The notes under the pieces are model-generated. The model was not told the origin of the DNA, searched no databases, and saw only the letters and a program-made list of their open reading frames with translations. This document shows, one piece after another, positions 11,683 through 27,684 of a DNA stretch of 32,000 nt (position 1 is its first letter; each line of letters opens with the position of its first letter). Where the stretch lies: positions 3,690,001 through 3,722,000 of the forward strand of contig JAIZWK010000001.1 in the NCBI GenBank assembly GCA_021498095.1, given 5' to 3'. Made by a program: the position numbers and the translations under genes. Origin of the DNA: Candidatus Harpocratesius repetitus. Lineage in GTDB: Archaea; Asgardarchaeota; Lokiarchaeia; Sigyniarchaeales; Promethearchaeaceae.

Positions 11683-12399
11683 CTATTTAATTTCTTCTTT
11701 TACATGGTTGGGAATGATAAGATATAAACTATAGATATAAAAAACATAAGAACCAAGCAAAAGCCATTCCCATAATGGAAGATACATCATAAAAAAGTAA
11801 ATTCTCCAGAAATAATATAACCAATAAAAAGTAAAGGCAGTTAAAAAGCCAATCATAATCACATCAGAAACAAGATATAAACATACAAGTTGCCAAATTT
11901 TAATCCACCCCATTTTATCTTTAATACTTTTGATAAGTGTATACATATTAAAGGAAAATGCTGTGAAAAAACCAAAAAAAGCTAATCCTGCAAAAATATA
12001 ATGGATTAAACCAGAATCTTCTGAAAAAATACCAACACCAAACACACCCAATGCGGAAAAGAGAAGGATTATAGTAAATATGTATGTAGTAATTTTAGCG
12101 ATTGGACGTAATTGGCGAAAAAGAAAGAATATATAAGGAATTAACCCTAATCCTGCAATCGACATGCTTAAACTCCAAATTGAATGACCAATCGGATTTT
12201 TTATTCTATTTCCAAGACTACTTACACTCATACGAAGAAATTGATAATGAATAGGGTATTTTAATATAGAAAATGTGTAAGAACTAAGGAGAATAACTAA
12301 AAGACAAATAAGAAGCACACCATAAGCATGCTTATGAGATTTTCCCTTTAAAAAATCAAGGATTCGTCTAAAAATAGACTTAAAATTCATATTTTTCAT
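11683..12399 (-). CDS. DUF998-like membrane protein (paralog of 10871..11677)
   Basis: SVSSLG...NPIG, GVGIFSED..IHYIFA and PLWEWLL. Confidence 0.7.
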   Translation of the reverse strand: MKNMNFKSIFRRILDFLKGKSHKHAYGVLLICLLVILLSSYTFSILKYPIHYQFLRMSVSSLGNRIKNPIGHSIWSLSMSIAGLGLIPYIFFLFRQLRPIAKITTYIFTIILLFSALGVFGVGIFSEDSGLIHYIFAGLAFFGFFTAFSFNMYTLIKSIKDKMGWIKIWQLVCLYLVSDVIMIGFLTAFTFYWLYYFWRIYFFMMYLPLWEWLLLGSYVFYIYSLYLIIPNHVKEEIK

Positions 12400-12401
12400 G
12401 A

Positions 12402-14711
12402 TTAATCATTGAATGTGGCAAGCTTACGATATAATGGAATAAAATCGCTAAATGAATTAATATCATAATATCTAAGTTTGTTAGAAATAAAATCAGAAAC
12501 TAATTCTTTAAGTGAAATATTTCCCATTCCAAAGATATTAACTTGAATCTTATCAAATTGATAGAAATTACTAAGGATTTTTTCTAGTTCAGGAAAATCA
12601 TCAGGGGTTGCATCAGTTATAATTATTAGTTTAATTGGACGAGTTGGTTCTTTTTCTCTTAGTTTTCTTATTATTTCTTCTGATTTTGGTAATATAGATT
12701 GAATATGATGAAATGTACCTGATTCTAATTCTACTTGTTCTAATAAATTGTGAATGAATGATACTAAAACAGATGTACTGTAAATATTTGAATTTAACCA
12801 ATCATCTTGATTAATTGTACTAATTATTTCTTCATGATCTTTGAAAACTACGATAGAAATATGTTCTTCAATTTTTCGTGAGATTTTTTCAATAATATAC
12901 AAAAATATGAAAAATAGAGCAGTATTAAGCCGTGAAATATGCGATCTTGCAGAAATCATCGGAAATGGAGATTCTATTGAAAGTTGTGAAAGAAAATTCT
13001 CTACTTTCCGCACTTCTTTATACTCCTTATTCACTTCAACATCACGAGCTAACATACTTCGTGTTAAATCAAAGAGAATAAGAGTATCAACTGGAACTAA
13101 GCCCTCTATTGATATTTCAATTTCTGAATTCGCAGAAATCTTTCCTATTTCTTGAGGACCTAAAGCTGGTGAACACGATTTAAATTTAAAAATCGAATCA
13201 AAATCTGGGTGCTTTACTTGCATCCGTGGAAATATAAAATAATTCAGAAAAAAGATTCTAATACTTTCTTTTCGATTTTGAATATTTGTTGTAATTTTAT
13301 TATAACTTTCTGACGAATTAGGATTGATTTTTGCTAATAAATATAATTTTTTAATATTAACAACATTTTTTGGTCGTTTTTGAATTGAGAGTAGATCTTT
13401 ATTGTTAAAATCAAACCATAGAATGTTAGGATCTATTTCAATTCTTTCATTAGATATTGTAAAATCTGTTTGAACCTTTGCATATGTCGTAAGATTAGTA
13501 TTGGATTTACTAATTCCCACAATATCGCCCAGTTTTACACCCAAGGCGTTAGCATTCCGAAAGTTTATCTTTACTTTTCCTATTAACTCATGATTAAAAA
13601 TTGGTTTAAAAGTAAGTTCTCTTACTTTAATAATCGGTGGTTCCATTGAAAAAACAACCAGTTTCGGAACTAGAACTTCAGCAATCTGATTCTCTTGGAA
13701 CATTTCTTTATCCATTATAATTGTCTCAACTTCAATTTTACTTATTTCTATAGTTGCCATTCCTTGCCTTCTTGATATTGGATCTTCCCAACCAAGAAAA
13801 GCACCCGGAAATAGAGAAAGACGATTTGCTAATTCTTGTGAGATTAAAATATTTCCATTTAAATCTCGATCAACAATTTTACATCGAACTATTTGAGAAT
13901 TAGGAATAATTAAATGCAGCTGTTCTACAGAAATTTTATTTGGATAATTTTCAAGATTTATTGAATCTTTTTCTTTATATTTAACTAATTCATTCGATTC
14001 TATTGTAAATTCTACATTTTGGTTCTTAATAGTAGATGTCGCAATAAAATCGTCAGCTAATGAGTCTGTCTTAATTTCAGATATATTACGATTCTCTTTG
14101 ATATTCTCAGAATGTATCTCTTTATTTATTCCCTTATAATATTCTTTATTTAACACTTTATCTGGAAAAGGTTGTTCTATTTTAGAATCATCAATTTGTT
14201 TGAGTTTATTCTCTTCTGTTGTATTTTTCCCTACATTACCATATTGGTTTAATTCATTATCCATATTTTTGGAAAAAAGAGATAGATTATCAAGTGCTTT
14301 CTCGACATCTGGATGTAAAACAAGATTTTGAGATTCTTGAGCCATTTTTTGCGATAATACTTCTTCAAAAAGTTGAGTTTGACTTTTTAAATCTAATTCA
14401 TCAATTTTATATTCTGAATATTCTTCCCCTGGATTGATAAATTTCGCAGCATTTTCTGCTTTAATGGTTTTATTTTGTGAAAATGGTAATGATTGAAAAA
14501 GTTTAGGTAATACAATAGTTCCTTCTGGAATCGTAGGAGATATTCTCATAGGAACATGAAAATAATTATGCCATCGTCGATTAGTAGAAAATAATCGAAT
14601 AGTTCCACCTTCGGGTAATCCTATCTTATGCGCATCTATCTCATTCATTTCACAATAAGGAAATTTATTCAATTCAAATTGAAATTTCAGACTGATCCGC
14701 ATACCCATCAC
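12402..14711 (-). CDS. Multi-domain protein: three Cdc48-N-like double-psi barrels, a Cdc48 Nc-like subdomain and a C-terminal VWA domain; no ATPase. Probable start ATG 14702 or 14708
   Basis: Barrel motifs EIDAHKIGLPEGGTIRL, ISQELANRLSLFPG and INFRNANALGVKLGDIVGI; Nc-like SCSPALG...ISANSEIEI; VWA LILFDLTRSM, IVVF, IIITD. AGGTGA SD at 14708-14713. Confidence 0.7.
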   Translation of the reverse strand: MMGMRISLKFQFELNKFPYCEMNEIDAHKIGLPEGGTIRLFSTNRRWHNYFHVPMRISPTIPEGTIVLPKLFQSLPFSQNKTIKAENAAKFINPGEEYSEYKIDELDLKSQTQLFEEVLSQKMAQESQNLVLHPDVEKALDNLSLFSKNMDNELNQYGNVGKNTTEENKLKQIDDSKIEQPFPDKVLNKEYYKGINKEIHSENIKENRNISEIKTDSLADDFIATSTIKNQNVEFTIESNELVKYKEKDSINLENYPNKISVEQLHLIIPNSQIVRCKIVDRDLNGNILISQELANRLSLFPGAFLGWEDPISRRQGMATIEISKIEVETIIMDKEMFQENQIAEVLVPKLVVFSMEPPIIKVRELTFKPIFNHELIGKVKINFRNANALGVKLGDIVGISKSNTNLTTYAKVQTDFTISNERIEIDPNILWFDFNNKDLLSIQKRPKNVVNIKKLYLLAKINPNSSESYNKITTNIQNRKESIRIFFLNYFIFPRMQVKHPDFDSIFKFKSCSPALGPQEIGKISANSEIEISIEGLVPVDTLILFDLTRSMLARDVEVNKEYKEVRKVENFLSQLSIESPFPMISARSHISRLNTALFFIFLYIIEKISRKIEEHISIVVFKDHEEIISTINQDDWLNSNIYSTSVLVSFIHNLLEQVELESGTFHHIQSILPKSEEIIRKLREKEPTRPIKLIIITDATPDDFPELEKILSNFYQFDKIQVNIFGMGNISLKELVSDFISNKLRYYDINSFSDFIPLYRKLATFND

Positions 14712-14793
14712 CTAATACTTTTATAGAAATAGAGCTAAATAATATAACTCTTTTGATAATCTTCAAGAGATCAAGAGATAAAAAAGATCTGAA

Positions 14794-15183
14794 TTATTCA
14801 GATTTAGGGTACGTTTCGCTTATTTTCTGGGCATAAAACCGAAAAACAGCAACAGTTTTACCTAAATCCCGAATAGAACGGGATGCACCAATTAGAAAAA
14901 ACCTCCCTGCTGCAGAAATAACCATAAAACTTTTTTTTCCTCGTAAAACAACTTCAATAAGCTTGTTATATCCAATTTTAACTACAGAATCATTACCGCT
15001 TTGAAGAAGAACCGCGCCCATTGCACATAAGGCATCAGGATCAATTTCATAACCAGAAACTGCAGAAAAAGCTAATCTAAGCCCTTCTTTGGTTACTAAA
15101 GCTAAAGCTTCAAGTTCAGTATTCTTAGTAATATTCGAGAGATAAGCACTTAGTTTTTGGGCATCATCTTCATTTAATGACAT
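14794..15183 (-). CDS. Roadblock/LC7 (MglB/LAMTOR-like) protein
   Basis: 129 aa; LEALALVTKEGLRLA, ALCAMGAVLL, LIEVVLRGKKSFMVISAAG and LG..VA pattern. Confidence 0.9.
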   Translation of the reverse strand: MSLNEDDAQKLSAYLSNITKNTELEALALVTKEGLRLAFSAVSGYEIDPDALCAMGAVLLQSGNDSVVKIGYNKLIEVVLRGKKSFMVISAAGRFFLIGASRSIRDLGKTVAVFRFYAQKISETYPKSE

Positions 15184-15204
15184 TTTTTTTCACAAATATT
15201 TTTT

Positions 15205-15222
15205 TTATTTATAAATTTTTCA
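15205..15222 (-). promoter_or_regulatory. Candidate archaeal BRE-TATA promoter for a leaderless roadblock transcript
   Basis: The - strand reads GAAAAA TTTATAAA TA, with the TATA 3' end about 25 nt upstream of ATG 15183; no SD present. Background is AT-rich. Confidence 0.4.
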
Positions 15223-15225
15223 AGA

Positions 15226-15981
15226 TTATTTCTTTTTTAAGAATTCAATTGCAATTACAGTTTGATCTTTTACTAAAACTCGAGGTGCATATCCATCAGC
15301 AAAAAATAATCCCTCAGGTAAAGTAGAAATAGGCTCAAGAACGCGCTCTATATTTTCTTTACCTAGAAAAGATTGCTTTTTTTCAGTTACTGAATAAGCA
15401 TGATCCCCTATTATTACCATTTCTCTTTCAAATCCTGCTGGAATTTCTTCTTCATCTAACAAATGAATAATCTCTTCCAATTTTGCTTTACTCGGAGTTT
15501 TTGTATATGTTGTAGATGAACTTGAAGTAAAGAGATGATCATTATCTCCAGTGTAAAGTGGTCCAGATTGTTCAATTTGATTATATTTAGAGTGATAAGA
15601 AGAAGGCGGGGTTTTTGGAGGAGGACTTCCACTAGGTTCACGAAATTGAATTTCATTACCTTCTTCTCGAATTTCATGAGCAAAACCTTTTGTTGGGGGT
15701 TCTTCAATTGCTTCAAGAAATTCTGGCTCTTTGTTAGTATCAACTTCTTCTAGAGAAACAGAACGATAACTTAATCCAACTTGTGATCTAATATCTTGAC
15801 TAATCCGCGCACCATTAAATTTTGATCTAACGGATGCATTTGTTCCTATCCAGAGGTAAACGACTCGTTTTTTATCATCGACTAAAACGTAACATTCTTT
15901 GCTATCTAAGAGCTTCTTTATAGGCTGTTCCTCAGTGATCTCATGTGCTTCACCATTTCCCCTTACTATGAACAGTTGCAT
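15226..15981 (-). CDS. Asgard single-domain gelsolin with C-terminal extra domain (1DGelX-like)
   Basis: LDSKECYVLVDD...VYLWIGTNAS..SKF gelsolin repeat (aa about 1-92), then a Pro/Ser linker and a C-terminal globular domain. AGGAG SD upstream. Confidence 0.85.
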   Translation of the reverse strand: MQLFIVRGNGEAHEITEEQPIKKLLDSKECYVLVDDKKRVVYLWIGTNASVRSKFNGARISQDIRSQVGLSYRSVSLEEVDTNKEPEFLEAIEEPPTKGFAHEIREEGNEIQFREPSGSPPPKTPPSSYHSKYNQIEQSGPLYTGDNDHLFTSSSSTTYTKTPSKAKLEEIIHLLDEEEIPAGFEREMVIIGDHAYSVTEKKQSFLGKENIERVLEPISTLPEGLFFADGYAPRVLVKDQTVIAIEFLKKK

Positions 15982-24901: not shown

Positions 24902-25117
24902 GATTTTATCTTAGAATCTATTTTGGAATAATTACAAGAGTACATTTTTTATTATTTTCAATATTATACTTTAATACTACGTCTTCACCTTTTTTCTGGA
25001 GCGTTACCAAAGATGAAAAGATTTGAAATATTTTTTAAAAATATATCAAAAGACCATCCATATAAACATGAATTATTTAAGGTTACATGAAGGATTTATT
25101 ATATTATAAAGAGAGGT

Positions 25118-25627
25118 GTGGTAGAGGCGGATCTGCAAATGGAAAAAATTAAAGAGAGAGAAATCGGAATAGCAGTATCTCATTATCATCAAAAATTAGG
25201 CCCACAATTCGCCGCTATCGCATTCGATTTCACGATTTTTGACAAACTTGCACAGTATGACATCCTTCAAGACAGTATTTCTTCTAGAACAAAAGATTTA
25301 GCTCTTTTTATCTCCACAAAAAATGGAACAAAATATACAATTAGAATTAAAAAAATAAAAATATTTGATCCTAATGCGAGAGGGAGAGTACAACGTTATG
25401 CGTTGATAATTATATATCCAAGAGAATTGAATGAAGAAAACTTCAAAATTGATGAAATTGTTGAAGACATTACAGAAAAACTAACAAATGGGTTAAGTAT
25501 TAGGCAATCATTAAATGCTTGGCATACATTACTTAATGATCAATATGGAAAAATTGAAAAAAATGATGATCTCAAGATAATTAAAAGATATCGAAGGATA
25601 ACCCATCCTCAATTAGATTTTCTTTAA
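25118..25627 (+). CDS. Stand-alone longin/uDENN-like protein; possible start ATG 25139
   Basis: N-terminal IAVSHYHQKLGP and internal DPNARGRVQRYALIII, the pattern seen in FLCN/SMCR8/NPRL-type longin domains. Confidence 0.6.
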   Translation: MVEADLQMEKIKEREIGIAVSHYHQKLGPQFAAIAFDFTIFDKLAQYDILQDSISSRTKDLALFISTKNGTKYTIRIKKIKIFDPNARGRVQRYALIIIYPRELNEENFKIDEIVEDITEKLTNGLSIRQSLNAWHTLLNDQYGKIEKNDDLKIIKRYRRITHPQLDFL

Positions 25628-25655: not shown

Positions 25656-25913
25656 CAAAAAACAACAAGAGGAATTCTTGAAATTATTGAAAGAAATGGT
25701 AATTCAGACGATATTCAAGCATTTCTTATGGATAGAAAATTACCAGTCGATGAAATAGAACTCGATGCAATAACTGAGCAAATTTTAAGAAATCCCCCAA
25801 AATTAGGTTATTTGACGATTTCAAATGCTTTACAATGGAAATTACAATATAAAAGAGTAATTAGTATTGAAGAAAATATAGAAGGATTAGTGAAAATCTA
25901 TGATCATAAATAA
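25656..25913 (+). pseudogene. 5'-truncated type II restriction endonuclease remnant (C-terminal about 85 codons)
   Basis: The frame is open upstream of ATG 25728 back to TAG 25614 and reads ..TTRGILEIIERNGNSDDIQAFLMDRKLP..PPKLGYLTISNALQWKLQY. I recall this as the C-terminus of a MTase-linked endonuclease family. It overlaps the MTase start by 14 nt. Confidence 0.6.
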
Positions 25914-27684
25914 TCACTCAATATATAACCAATTACTTGATAAGATTAGTTATTCTAATGATATTAATATATTAAACAAGTATTTTAATCAAGAATATGG
26001 ATTCATTTCTTTTTTTTCAAGTTCAAAAAAAGTTCAAGATTTCAAAACATTTTTAAAAAAAAATCTTGATAATCAAAAGAGTATAGAGTTTGATTACCAA
26101 GATTTAGGTGATTTTCAGACACCATTTGAATTTTCAGTTGATGTGTGTAATTTTCTTTCTAAAATAACTGAAAAATCCGAAGTATTGATTGAACCAACTT
26201 GTGGAAAAGGAAATTTTGTTTTAGCAGCTCTTAAAACAATTCCATCGATTAAATATATATATTGTGTTGAAATTCAATCAAAATATGAGTGGATTTTCAA
26301 AATAAGGTTAATACTTTTTTTAAAAACTTACAGAAAAAGAGTACAAATCGAGTTTCATAATGAAAATATTTTCACTCATGAGTTTTCTCCTAAATTCCTT
26401 GATATGATGAAGGAAAAAGATTGTATTATATTAGGTAACCCCCCATGGGTGACTAATACCGAATTAGAAAATCTTGGTTCTAAAAATTTACCAAAAAAAT
26501 CGAATTTTAAAAAATTCAAAGGAATCGATTCAATTACAGGAAAAAGTAATTTTGATATTGCTGAATATATTATTTATCATCTTATTTCTAAATTTGATAA
26601 ATATAATGGATATATTTGTATGTTATGTAAAAATATCGTTATCAGAAATATAATTAAAGAAAATCCTAAACTATATTTAAATATTGGAGAAATTACACAA
26701 TTAAATTTCGATTCAAAAAAAATATTTAATATTAATGCAAATGCTTCAGTTTTTATTGCCAAATTGAATAGTCCTCCTGAATATACCTGTGTTTCCACTA
26801 ATTTCCATAACTCTTCCCATCGTTGTGAACTCGGTTGGTATCATAAAAAATTCGTTTCAGATATTGCAAAATATAAAGAAACAGAAAAATTCGATGGTAA
26901 TTTTTCTTATGAGTGGCGTCAAGGGATAAAGCATGATTTGTCAAGAATAATGGTTCTTAAAAAACACGACGATAAAGGAGAATATATTAACGGTAATAAA
27001 GAAAAAATCGCTTTAGAAGAAGATTTAATTTTTCCCTATTTAAAATCTTCAGATTTAAAGAAAATGATTGTGAATAAATCAAGATTTTTTACAATAATTA
27101 CTCAAAAAAAAGTAGGAGAAGATACAAAATATATCAAAGAGAAATTTCCTAAGACATGGAATTATTTGAATCAAAATGTTGAATTATTTAGAAGGAGAAA
27201 ATCTTCGATATATCGAAATAAACCAGATTTTTCGATTTTTGGTATTGGAAAATATTCTTTTGCAAAATTTAAGATAGGTGTTTCTGGCCTATACAAAAAG
27301 TTAAATTTCGCCTTAATATATCCTATTGGAAATAAACCAGTTATGCTTGATGATACTTGCTATTTGGTACCATTTGGAAAGAAAAAAGATGCTATAATTA
27401 CTTGGACTTATCTAAATTGTAAGGAAGTATCTCAATTCATGGAATCAATTACTTTTCAAGATACAAAAAGACCGTATACGAAAGATGTTTTAATGAGAAT
27501 AGATCTACATTCAATTGTAAAGAATATTGAATTATCAAAAATTTTAGATTTCTATAAAAAAGAATTATTTAATTTGACAAATTATGAACTTAAATTAGAA
27601 GATTTTAAGACTTATAGAAAAAATTTAGATCCTTCTAATGTAATTGAAGTTGATAAAGATAAGAAAAAATTTAGATCCTTCTAA
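25900..27684 (+). CDS. N6-adenine DNA methyltransferase (gamma class, type II R-M) with C-terminal target-recognition region
   Basis: GDFQTP, motif I IEPTCGKGNF, motif IV GNPPW. Confidence 0.9.
   Translation: MIINNHSIYNQLLDKISYSNDINILNKYFNQEYGFISFFSSSKKVQDFKTFLKKNLDNQKSIEFDYQDLGDFQTPFEFSVDVCNFLSKITEKSEVLIEPTCGKGNFVLAALKTIPSIKYIYCVEIQSKYEWIFKIRLILFLKTYRKRVQIEFHNENIFTHEFSPKFLDMMKEKDCIILGNPPWVTNTELENLGSKNLPKKSNFKKFKGIDSITGKSNFDIAEYIIYHLISKFDKYNGYICMLCKNIVIRNIIKENPKLYLNIGEITQLNFDSKKIFNINANASVFIAKLNSPPEYTCVSTNFHNSSHRCELGWYHKKFVSDIAKYKETEKFDGNFSYEWRQGIKHDLSRIMVLKKHDDKGEYINGNKEKIALEEDLIFPYLKSSDLKKMIVNKSRFFTIITQKKVGEDTKYIKEKFPKTWNYLNQNVELFRRRKSSIYRNKPDFSIFGIGKYSFAKFKIGVSGLYKKLNFALIYPIGNKPVMLDDTCYLVPFGKKKDAIITWTYLNCKEVSQFMESITFQDTKRPYTKDVLMRIDLHSIVKNIELSKILDFYKKELFNLTNYELKLEDFKTYRKNLDPSNVIEVDKDKKKFRSF

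Follow-up and report, generated by a model that had tools for sequence, protein, structure and literature searches.

A stand-alone longin protein of Candidatus Harpocratesius repetitus with a candidate arginine finger of the folliculin/Lst7-NPRL2-SMCR8 type

Could a longin domain of 169 residues, standing by itself in an archaeal genome, carry the arginine finger of the eukaryotic GTPase-activating proteins (GAPs) that contain longin domains? The question is raised by a 32,000-nucleotide stretch of Candidatus Harpocratesius repetitus, a member of the Lokiarchaeia (GenBank assembly GCA_021498095.1, contig JAIZWK010000001.1, positions 3,690,001 to 3,722,000 of the forward strand; hereafter the window), which is part of a single 4.36-Mb contig with 31% G+C and which encodes, at 25118-25627, a protein that we call P0001. 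The eukaryotic enzymes concerned, namely folliculin (FLCN), GATOR1 and C9orf72-SMCR8, govern nutrient signalling through TORC1, and mutations in them occur in Birt-Hogg-Dube syndrome, epilepsy and amyotrophic lateral sclerosis/frontotemporal dementia. The longin of yeast Lst7 or human FLCN is the catalytic subunit of the Lst4-Lst7/FLCN-FNIP GAP for Gtr2/RagC/D, NPRL2 (yeast Npr2) is the catalytic subunit of GATOR1/SEACIT, a GAP for RagA/B, and the longin of SMCR8, in the C9orf72-SMCR8-WDR41 complex, serves as a GAP for ARF/RAB GTPases. From its sequence and its structural model, P0001 appears to be a stand-alone longin of this folliculin/Lst7-NPRL2-SMCR8 ("GAP-type") class, to which GTPase binding and catalysis may be ascribed by homology, and we consider it somewhat better than an even bet (a probability of about 0.55) that it acts as a dimeric longin platform that would dock on a Rag- or Arf-like GTPase and insert R88 as an arginine finger. 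The features on which the argument draws are the following.

25118..25627, plus strand: gene of P0001, a stand-alone longin protein of 169 amino acids, identified from the open reading frame (ORF) listing and translation, its homologs, the structural model and its longin matches
25199..25204, plus strand: codons for the "GP motif", G28-P29, with which predicted strand 2 opens; invariant, and aligned with FLCN G15-P16 and NPRL2 G20-P21
25376..25384, plus strand: codons of A87-R88-G89, the candidate arginine finger in the predicted strand 4-5 loop; invariant, and aligned with FLCN A163-R164-G165
25271..25273, plus strand: codon of D52 in predicted helix 1; invariant across three subfamilies and inside the predicted homodimer interface
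25256..25312, plus strand: residues 47-65, the symmetric homodimer interface (C-terminal half of helix 1 plus strand 3) given by complex prediction

The letters and their translation hold both strings reported in a first-pass annotation of this DNA, a first strand ending in HQKLGP and DPNARGRVQRYALIII, with the arginine codon at exactly 25379-25381; this codon, that of R88, is AGA, and Q-K-L-G28-P29 comes directly after the first predicted strand (residues 17-24), the block reading SHYHQKLGP. For the eukaryotic side of the comparison, the FLCN, NPRL2 and SMCR8 sequences were retrieved from a PDB copy with short probes. There, FLCN 1-26 carries H9-F-C-E-L-H-G15-P16 and FLCN 154-178 contains DSLARGFQRWYSII (D160-S-L-A-R164-G), NPRL2 carries F15-H-P-T-L-G20-P21 and Y-S-R78-N-A, and SMCR8 140-161 contains DLEARGFVRPFCMAYI (D143-L-E-A-R147-G); the motifs around FLCN R164 and SMCR8 R147 that the annotation had given proved to be right, as did its F/H-x-x-x-x-GP opening, at G15-P16 in FLCN and G20-P21 in NPRL2. 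With FLCN, P0001 shares a first-strand ending H-[YF]-x-x-x-x-G-P, and with both FLCN and SMCR8 it shares a D-x-x-A-R-G motif followed by a hydrophobic strand, the SMCR8 version (PDB 6LT0, 7MGE) being D-x-x-A-R-G-x-V with R147 on the strand 4-5 loop, as for R88 in P0001. The surroundings of R78 in NPRL2 (K-Y-S-R-N-A), on the other hand, are unlike the ARG loop of P0001. The spacing from GP to arginine is 59 residues in P0001 and 57 in NPRL2, whereas in FLCN, which has a long insert between the GP turn and the finger, it is 148 residues. The SMCR8 longin also carries a GP motif; in each of the three eukaryotic GAP longins, and in Asgard longins too, this motif, at the junction of strands 1 and 2, lies next to the finger (PMC12290439).

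Local alignment (custom Smith-Waterman, 2000 shuffles) pairs residues 82-99 of P0001 with FLCN 158-175 without gaps, which sets D84, A87, R88 and G89 on D160, A163, R164 and G165, at a score that 88 of the 2000 shuffles reach; for the region of the first strand and GP motif, the corresponding counts are 41/2000 against FLCN and 15/2000 against NPRL2. The structural alignments are in register with this: they match residue 5 of NPRL2 to residue 13 of the model and residue 2 of FLCN to residue 15 of the model, so that G28-P29 would fall on G20-P21 and G15-P16, respectively, if the first strand contains no insertion or deletion. In the AlphaFold2 (AF2) model of P0001, R88 belongs to the hairpin that joins predicted strands 4 (72-83) and 5 (91-101); in SMCR8, the strand 4-5 loop of the longin holds R147, the counterpart of FLCN R164 (bioRxiv 10.1101/2020.04.16.045708). 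The annotation had placed the arginine in a position like that of FLCN R164 and SMCR8 R147, and the loop and the alignments agree with that placement; R88 is thus probably equivalent to FLCN R164 by sequence and topology, from which we infer that the two residues would superpose.

That the fold is longin we consider, from the model, to be beyond reasonable doubt, as the annotation had proposed. Built on a 25-sequence alignment, the AF2 model has a predicted local distance difference test score (pLDDT) of 81 and a predicted template-modelling score (pTM) of 0.73, and its elements (strands 17-24 and 28-35; helix 43-55; strands 60-66, 72-83 and 91-101; helices 111-123 and 128-142) follow the strand-strand-helix-strand-strand-strand-helix-helix order of the five-stranded longin fold; longin structures match it at Z 10-12.7. 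Solved structures were ranked by applying VIA-align to Foldseek candidates. The nearest solved structures are GAP-type longins, those of NPRL2, FLCN and Lst4; the ranking is as follows.

GATOR1 chains whose length and numbering fit NPRL2: Z 12.7, root-mean-square deviation (rmsd) 2.9, 126 residues aligned
SEA-complex chains: Z 12.2-12.6
Lokiarchaeal longin 8yqg: Z 11.4
folliculin 8dhb_J: Z 11.2, rmsd 2.9, 124 residues aligned
6ces_N, identified as NPRL2 from its PDB sequence: Z 10.7
Lst4: Z 10.7
folliculin 6nzd_H: Z 10.3
Sec22b: Z 10.2
Ykt6: Z 10.1
DENND1: Z 9.1
C9orf72-SMCR8 chains: Z 8.3-8.9
MglB: Z 7.6-7.8

A shape search of the ESM Atlas returned matches at template-modelling (TM) scores of 0.60-0.64, including NPR2/NPRL2 clusters at 0.61-0.63, and further gave Avl9/uDENN clusters and archaeal longin-GTPase fusions. 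By feature search, the nearest named cluster is Promethearchaeota (0.91, with NPR2 on 19% of its members), and a eukaryotic C9orf72/NPR2 cluster (0.76) and an LST7/Folliculin cluster (0.75) are to be taken as leads only. Foldseek matches to LOV/PAS structures (rmsd 13-20 Å, TM about 0.3) were rejected as topology noise.

Are the two motifs more than incidental features of one sequence? P0001 has 24 homolog clusters (159-191 amino acids, E 1e-39 to 1e-93, 51-90% identity), the closest of which, at 90% identity, is labelled Candidatus Harpocratesius sp. and the remainder Promethearchaeota, and in the family alignment of 25 sequences E-I-G-x-A-x-S-H-Y-H-x-K-L-G-P and A-R-G...R-Y (R93, Y94) are invariant. 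A wider alignment of 26 sequences from three subfamilies, namely 16 family members, eight distant relatives from a sister family, and two paralogs of the genome itself that are represented by their N-terminal domains, retains at 14-19% identity exactly six invariant columns: G28, P29, D52, A87, R88 and G89. This six-column invariance is the strongest internal evidence that the GP and ARG motifs are functional rather than incidental, and it extends to distant paralogs the conservation of the arginine among homologs that the annotation had expected. D52, in predicted helix 1, is a third invariant residue, and no counterpart to it is known from the literature considered here. A loose GP...[AS]RG pattern fits 13 of the 4487 ORFs of at least 80 amino acids in the genome, and four of these 13 are longin proteins that were recovered independently through hidden Markov model (HMM) searches. 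The same data bear on the proposal that an AT-rich genome has produced the ORF or its motif by chance: at 31% G+C long spurious ORFs are uncommon and short motifs frequent, which lends the proposal what plausibility it has for the motif, but 24 homologs of conserved length and 51-90% identity, a confidently predicted fold and invariant motifs refute it, and we give it practically no credence.

The family is narrow and lineage-restricted. In a sample of 151 genomes from across the phylum, true orthologs of P0001 are confined to the organism's own family (2/2 genomes), distant relatives (about 210-230 amino acids, E 1e-4 to 1e-7) occur in one sister family (10/25 genomes), and the 25 other families searched hold no relative at E <=0.001. 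In an exhaustive phmmer search over 1.8 billion representatives, all 15 matches belong to the close family and no bridge to eukaryotic proteins was found; a longer or fused homolog was likewise absent from 962 candidates, which is weak evidence.

A profile of the three subfamilies run against the PDB gave folliculin as the second of two matches, in two collinear stretches with GP on GP and ARG on ARG. The Pfam family Folliculin (PF11704) matches 24 of the 25 family members below its cut-off (best E 3e-4), and in P0001 itself the match (E 0.0047) spans residues 63-119, including the ARG loop. No match to PF06218 (NPR2) was reported for P0001 in the Pfam search, no NCBIfam family matches it, PDB sequence searches with P0001, with the family profile and with fragment 58-125 returned no longin, and BLASTP did not align P0001 to the FLCN 25-mer.

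The paralogs in the same genome extend the comparison and link the motifs to Rag-type GTPases. A 469-residue protein (G000:C1:3013450-3014859; L001:1255-2664, plus strand) consists of a longin with E-G-P and D-E-S-A-R-G motifs, a GTPase part of the Gtr1/RagA type (Pfam, E 2.4e-20) and a C-terminal domain; this longin-Rag fusion family is widespread in the Promethearchaeota, including two cultured Lokiarchaeia, with Hodarchaeota and Sigynarchaeota labels as well, and its R95-G96 is invariant. The GP and ARG of the fusion share columns with those of P0001 (MAFFT, hhalign), and its sequence suggests that it may carry an arginine finger acting in cis. A 390-residue paralog (G000:C1:624217-625389; L010:2001-3170, plus strand), with GP at 15-16 and W-A-R70-G, is modelled as a longin to which two winged helices are appended. 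In VIA-align it reaches Z 14.4 with NPRL2, of which it covers more (192 residues aligned) than does P0001 (126), and Z 14.1 with folliculin. All 41 genomes sampled from the order encode proteins of this type, several paralogs to a genome, and the architecture is the one that Liu et al. (bioRxiv 10.1101/2020.10.19.343400) call "NPRL2-like". A 292-residue paralog (L011:2001-2879, minus strand) has both the GP and the W-A-R-G motif, and in a 505-residue longin-Rag GTPase fusion (L012:2001-3515, plus strand) GP is kept and the arginine is absent. Finally, three consecutive minus-strand genes lie 0.8-4.2 kb past the end of the window (L009:3790-7246): the first, about 7 kb downstream of P0001, encodes P0098, a 428-residue longin-Rag-roadblock protein whose longin starts with ...T-E-W-D-S-T-M-G-T, and the other two encode a 168-residue Ras/Rab-like GTPase and a 498-residue KaiC/GvpD-like ATPase.

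How might P0001 work, if it is a GAP? Complex prediction with two copies gave a score of 0.61 (best control 0.00), and three runs shared 100% of their contacts with a partner pLDDT of at least 78. The mark for a dimer is attained in 20 of 30 cases among proteins solved as same-chain pairs and in 1 of 23 among those solved as single chains, counts that are rough only, because our own alignment was used; moreover, since dimeric longins such as 8yqg have been solved, the pass may reflect likeness to known dimers rather than independent evidence. The predicted contacts (47-49, 51-52, 55-58 and 60-65, residue 62 pairing with 62) involve the end of helix 1, including D52, and strand 3, which is the usual longin/roadblock dimer seam, and because the interface is formed by residues 47-65, R88 and the GP turn would be left free. 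In the mechanism that we prefer, two longins would join at helix 1 and strand 3 so that their sheets run on as one, either as the predicted homodimer or as a heterodimer with another longin; by homology, the dimer would bind one of the archaeon's own small GTPases, of the Rag-like or Arf-like kind, at the face that holds the nucleotide; and R88, on the strand 4-5 hairpin beside the G28-P29 turn, would enter the nucleotide pocket and speed GTP hydrolysis, a step modelled on FLCN R164, NPRL2 R78 and SMCR8 R147.

Several observations weigh against this reading. P0001 has no individually significant sequence match to FLCN, NPRL2 or SMCR8 in the Pfam and PDB profile searches: its PF11704 score is 17.2 bits against a cut-off of 23.3, and the folliculin match of the three-subfamily profile, with an E value of 1.8, is by itself not significant. 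The equivalence of R88, FLCN R164 and NPRL2 R78 is drawn from sequence and topology, and the GAP-type longins outrank the SNARE longins by only about 1-2.5 Z units. The comparison of stand-alone with fused longins by hhalign is weak (E 0.039, probability 1.3%). At the locus and in the neighbourhoods of relatives, neither a partner gene nor a GTPase gene stands in an operon with P0001, and the closest gene for a Rag-like GTPase lies some 7 kb off, on the opposite strand. The GAP longins of eukaryotes each form a heterodimer with a different longin protein in order to act, and the SMCR8 longin by itself is inactive (bioRxiv 10.1101/2020.04.16.045708), and biochemical data for Asgard GAP-type longins are absent from the two accounts PMC12290439 and PMC10933270.

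P0001 might instead be a non-catalytic longin platform (a scaffold, a GEF-like (guanine-nucleotide exchange factor-like) protein or a localisation factor) that would dimerise and bind a GTPase or some other partner, with ARG and GP residues that serve the structure of the hairpin or the binding of a partner, an explanation that we judge unlikely while taking it seriously. Most longin/roadblock dimers are platforms or GEFs and only occasionally GAPs (PMC10933270), the longins of SNARE, DENN and Mon1-Ccz1 proteins match P0001 too (Z 7-10), and every similarity to FLCN is below the significance thresholds. The Lokiarchaeota roadblock-longin protein of PDB 8YQG, a dimeric archaeal longin, has an A-G-P-E-P turn and no arginine at the finger position; GP motif and finger can therefore be uncoupled in Asgard longins, and GP alone is no marker of a GAP. 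Yet the columns that are invariant across the three subfamilies make up the two motifs defining eukaryotic GAP longins (PMC12290439), the D-x-x-A-R-G and hydrophobic-strand context is the one common to FLCN and SMCR8, and the ARG and GP residues lie outside the predicted dimer interface. The catalytic reading is preferred.

A different possibility, compatible with catalysis, is that P0001 works solely as a heterodimer with an arginine-less longin and supplies the finger in trans to the GTPase domain of its partner, in parallel with SMCR8-C9orf72 and FLCN-FNIP; a candidate partner would be the N-terminal longin of a longin-Rag-roadblock protein such as P0098, with its W-D...G. All eukaryotic GAP longins are heterodimeric, as noted above for SMCR8, the W-D motif of C9orf72 has been described as essential (PMC12290439), the genome encodes two arginine-less longin-Rag fusions (P0098 and the 505-residue protein), and two relatives' contigs (L004, L005) have a Rag-like gene about as far downstream of the P0001 ortholog. 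The homodimer of P0001, however, is predicted with a clear margin over the controls, the P0001 and P0098 genes are separated by metabolic genes and TBP and face opposite ways, another relative's contig has no Rag gene within 6 kb of the ortholog, and the W-D resemblance of P0098 to C9orf72 is tentative. We hold an obligatory heterodimer of this kind to be quite doubtful, and the preferred dimeric platform leaves room for either form of pairing.

At its most far-reaching, that platform could be a self-sufficient, symmetric homodimeric GAP with two arginine fingers, acting on the dimeric Rag-like GTPases of Lokiarchaeia and representing a living pre-duplication state behind the asymmetric FLCN-FNIP, NPRL2-NPRL3 and SMCR8-C9orf72 pairs, with D52 at the seam as a third functional residue that is undescribed for the eukaryotic enzymes. 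We regard this extended version as speculative and rather improbable.

Beyond the finger, P0001 can be set against each of the known systems. With FLCN/Lst7 (PDB 8DHB, 6NZD, 6ULG; PF11704) it shares the longin fold (to 8dhb_J as listed above), but it has no DENN domain and ends after the longin helices at residue 169, unlike the full-length longin-DENN proteins FLCN and SMCR8 and like yeast Lst7, which is longin only (bioRxiv 10.1101/2020.04.16.045708). FLCN pairs with FNIP (Lst7 with Lst4), whereas P0001, for which no FNIP- or Lst4-like protein was found as partner, is predicted to pair with itself in the canonical helix 1/strand 3 mode. NPRL2 (PDB 6CES, 7T3B, 9O5D; PF06218), the best structural match, has C-terminal domains that are absent from P0001, and its partners NPRL3 and DEPDC5 have no P0001 equivalents. 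SMCR8 is a longin-DENN protein of 937 residues that needs C9orf72, and the C9orf72-SMCR8 chains match P0001 less well than do the other two systems. MglB (PDB 6H5B, 6HJM) is a homodimeric platform that acts as a GAP, but it has the roadblock rather than the longin fold and lacks an FLCN-type finger.

Does P0001 then stand near the origin of the eukaryotic enzymes? The first-pass annotation had called it a candidate ancestor of FLCN/SMCR8/GATOR1-type GAPs; because the family is lineage-restricted, with orthologs in its own family and distant relatives in a single sister family, this part of the proposal is unsupported, and better candidates for deep ancestry are the widespread 390-residue NPRL2-like paralog and the published proteins of the Heimdall group. 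Nor is the idea of an Asgard GAP-type longin new. NPRL2-like longins, FLCN-like proteins and longin-Rag fusions have been described in Asgard archaea (Liu et al., bioRxiv 10.1101/2020.10.19.343400), both the GP motif and the finger have been reported as retained in Asgard FLCN/SMCR8-type longins, for which GAP activity on ArfR or Rag-like GTPases was proposed (Traffic 2025, PMC12290439), and longin-GTPase-roadblock architectures were catalogued by Tran et al. (PMC10933270); since the first two of these accounts describe the class, it was already known. The published reference protein is heimdallarchaeial, whereas the P0001 family is Lokiarchaeial and 160-170 residues long. The present analysis contributes the pattern of six invariant columns, D52 among them, the prediction of a homodimer, and a survey of the paralogs that one closed genome encodes. 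If active, P0001 would be a very small model, at 169 residues, of the folliculin/GATOR1/C9orf72-SMCR8 type of GAP and would show a Rag "off switch" older than eukaryotes; it is a tractable candidate in that it is small, predicted to be homodimeric and provided with clear mutation targets (G28, P29, D52, R88), and the longin-Rag fusion paralogs suggest which GTPases to consider first.

The 5' end of the gene and its surroundings complete the picture. The frame opens with a GTG at 25118 and ends with a TAA at 25625-25627; an ATG at 25139, seven codons in, is an equally plausible start, and the N-terminal 13 or so residues vary between homologs and are poorly modelled. The match to a same-genus ortholog (G089:C4:33750-34244; L015) crosses one TAG near its N-terminal end, and the open frame there, of 162 amino acids, begins M-N-N-T-D-H-E-I-G; because of this 162-residue frame, a shorter N-terminus is supported for the family. 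Upstream, one further feature was read from the sequence.

25094..25110, plus strand: A/T-rich, TATA-like stretch upstream of the P0001 gene, possibly an archaeal promoter

The neighbours of P0001 are genes for malic enzyme, a GlpA-like dehydrogenase set, a methyltransferase-like protein, an Ldh_2 dehydrogenase and TBP, and in the neighbourhoods of orthologs in relatives this metabolic synteny is kept only in part. A conserved operon partner was rejected on the grounds that relatives' neighbours differ (Ldh_2, malic enzyme, GlpA-like, UbiA and MFS genes), and the proteins of 263-266 amino acids encoded next to orthologs in relatives show no homology to each other. The lack of an operon agrees with a published observation on Lokiarchaeia, whose genes for GTPases and longins generally lie outside operons (PMC10933270).

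Between the longin gene and the Ldh_2 gene, at 25728-27684 on the plus strand of the window, an ORF of 61 amino acids overlaps the start of a 594-residue protein with a faint MmeI-methyltransferase match; because relatives have a UbiA gene or nothing at this place, the pair looks like a local insertion. Elsewhere in the window, at 11683-15981 on the minus strand, a Frag1/DRAM-like membrane protein, a 769-residue protein, a roadblock/LC7 protein and a gelsolin-like protein are encoded in a cluster, and the 769-residue protein (12402-14711) has an N-terminal double-psi barrel and Molydop_binding as its single Pfam match.

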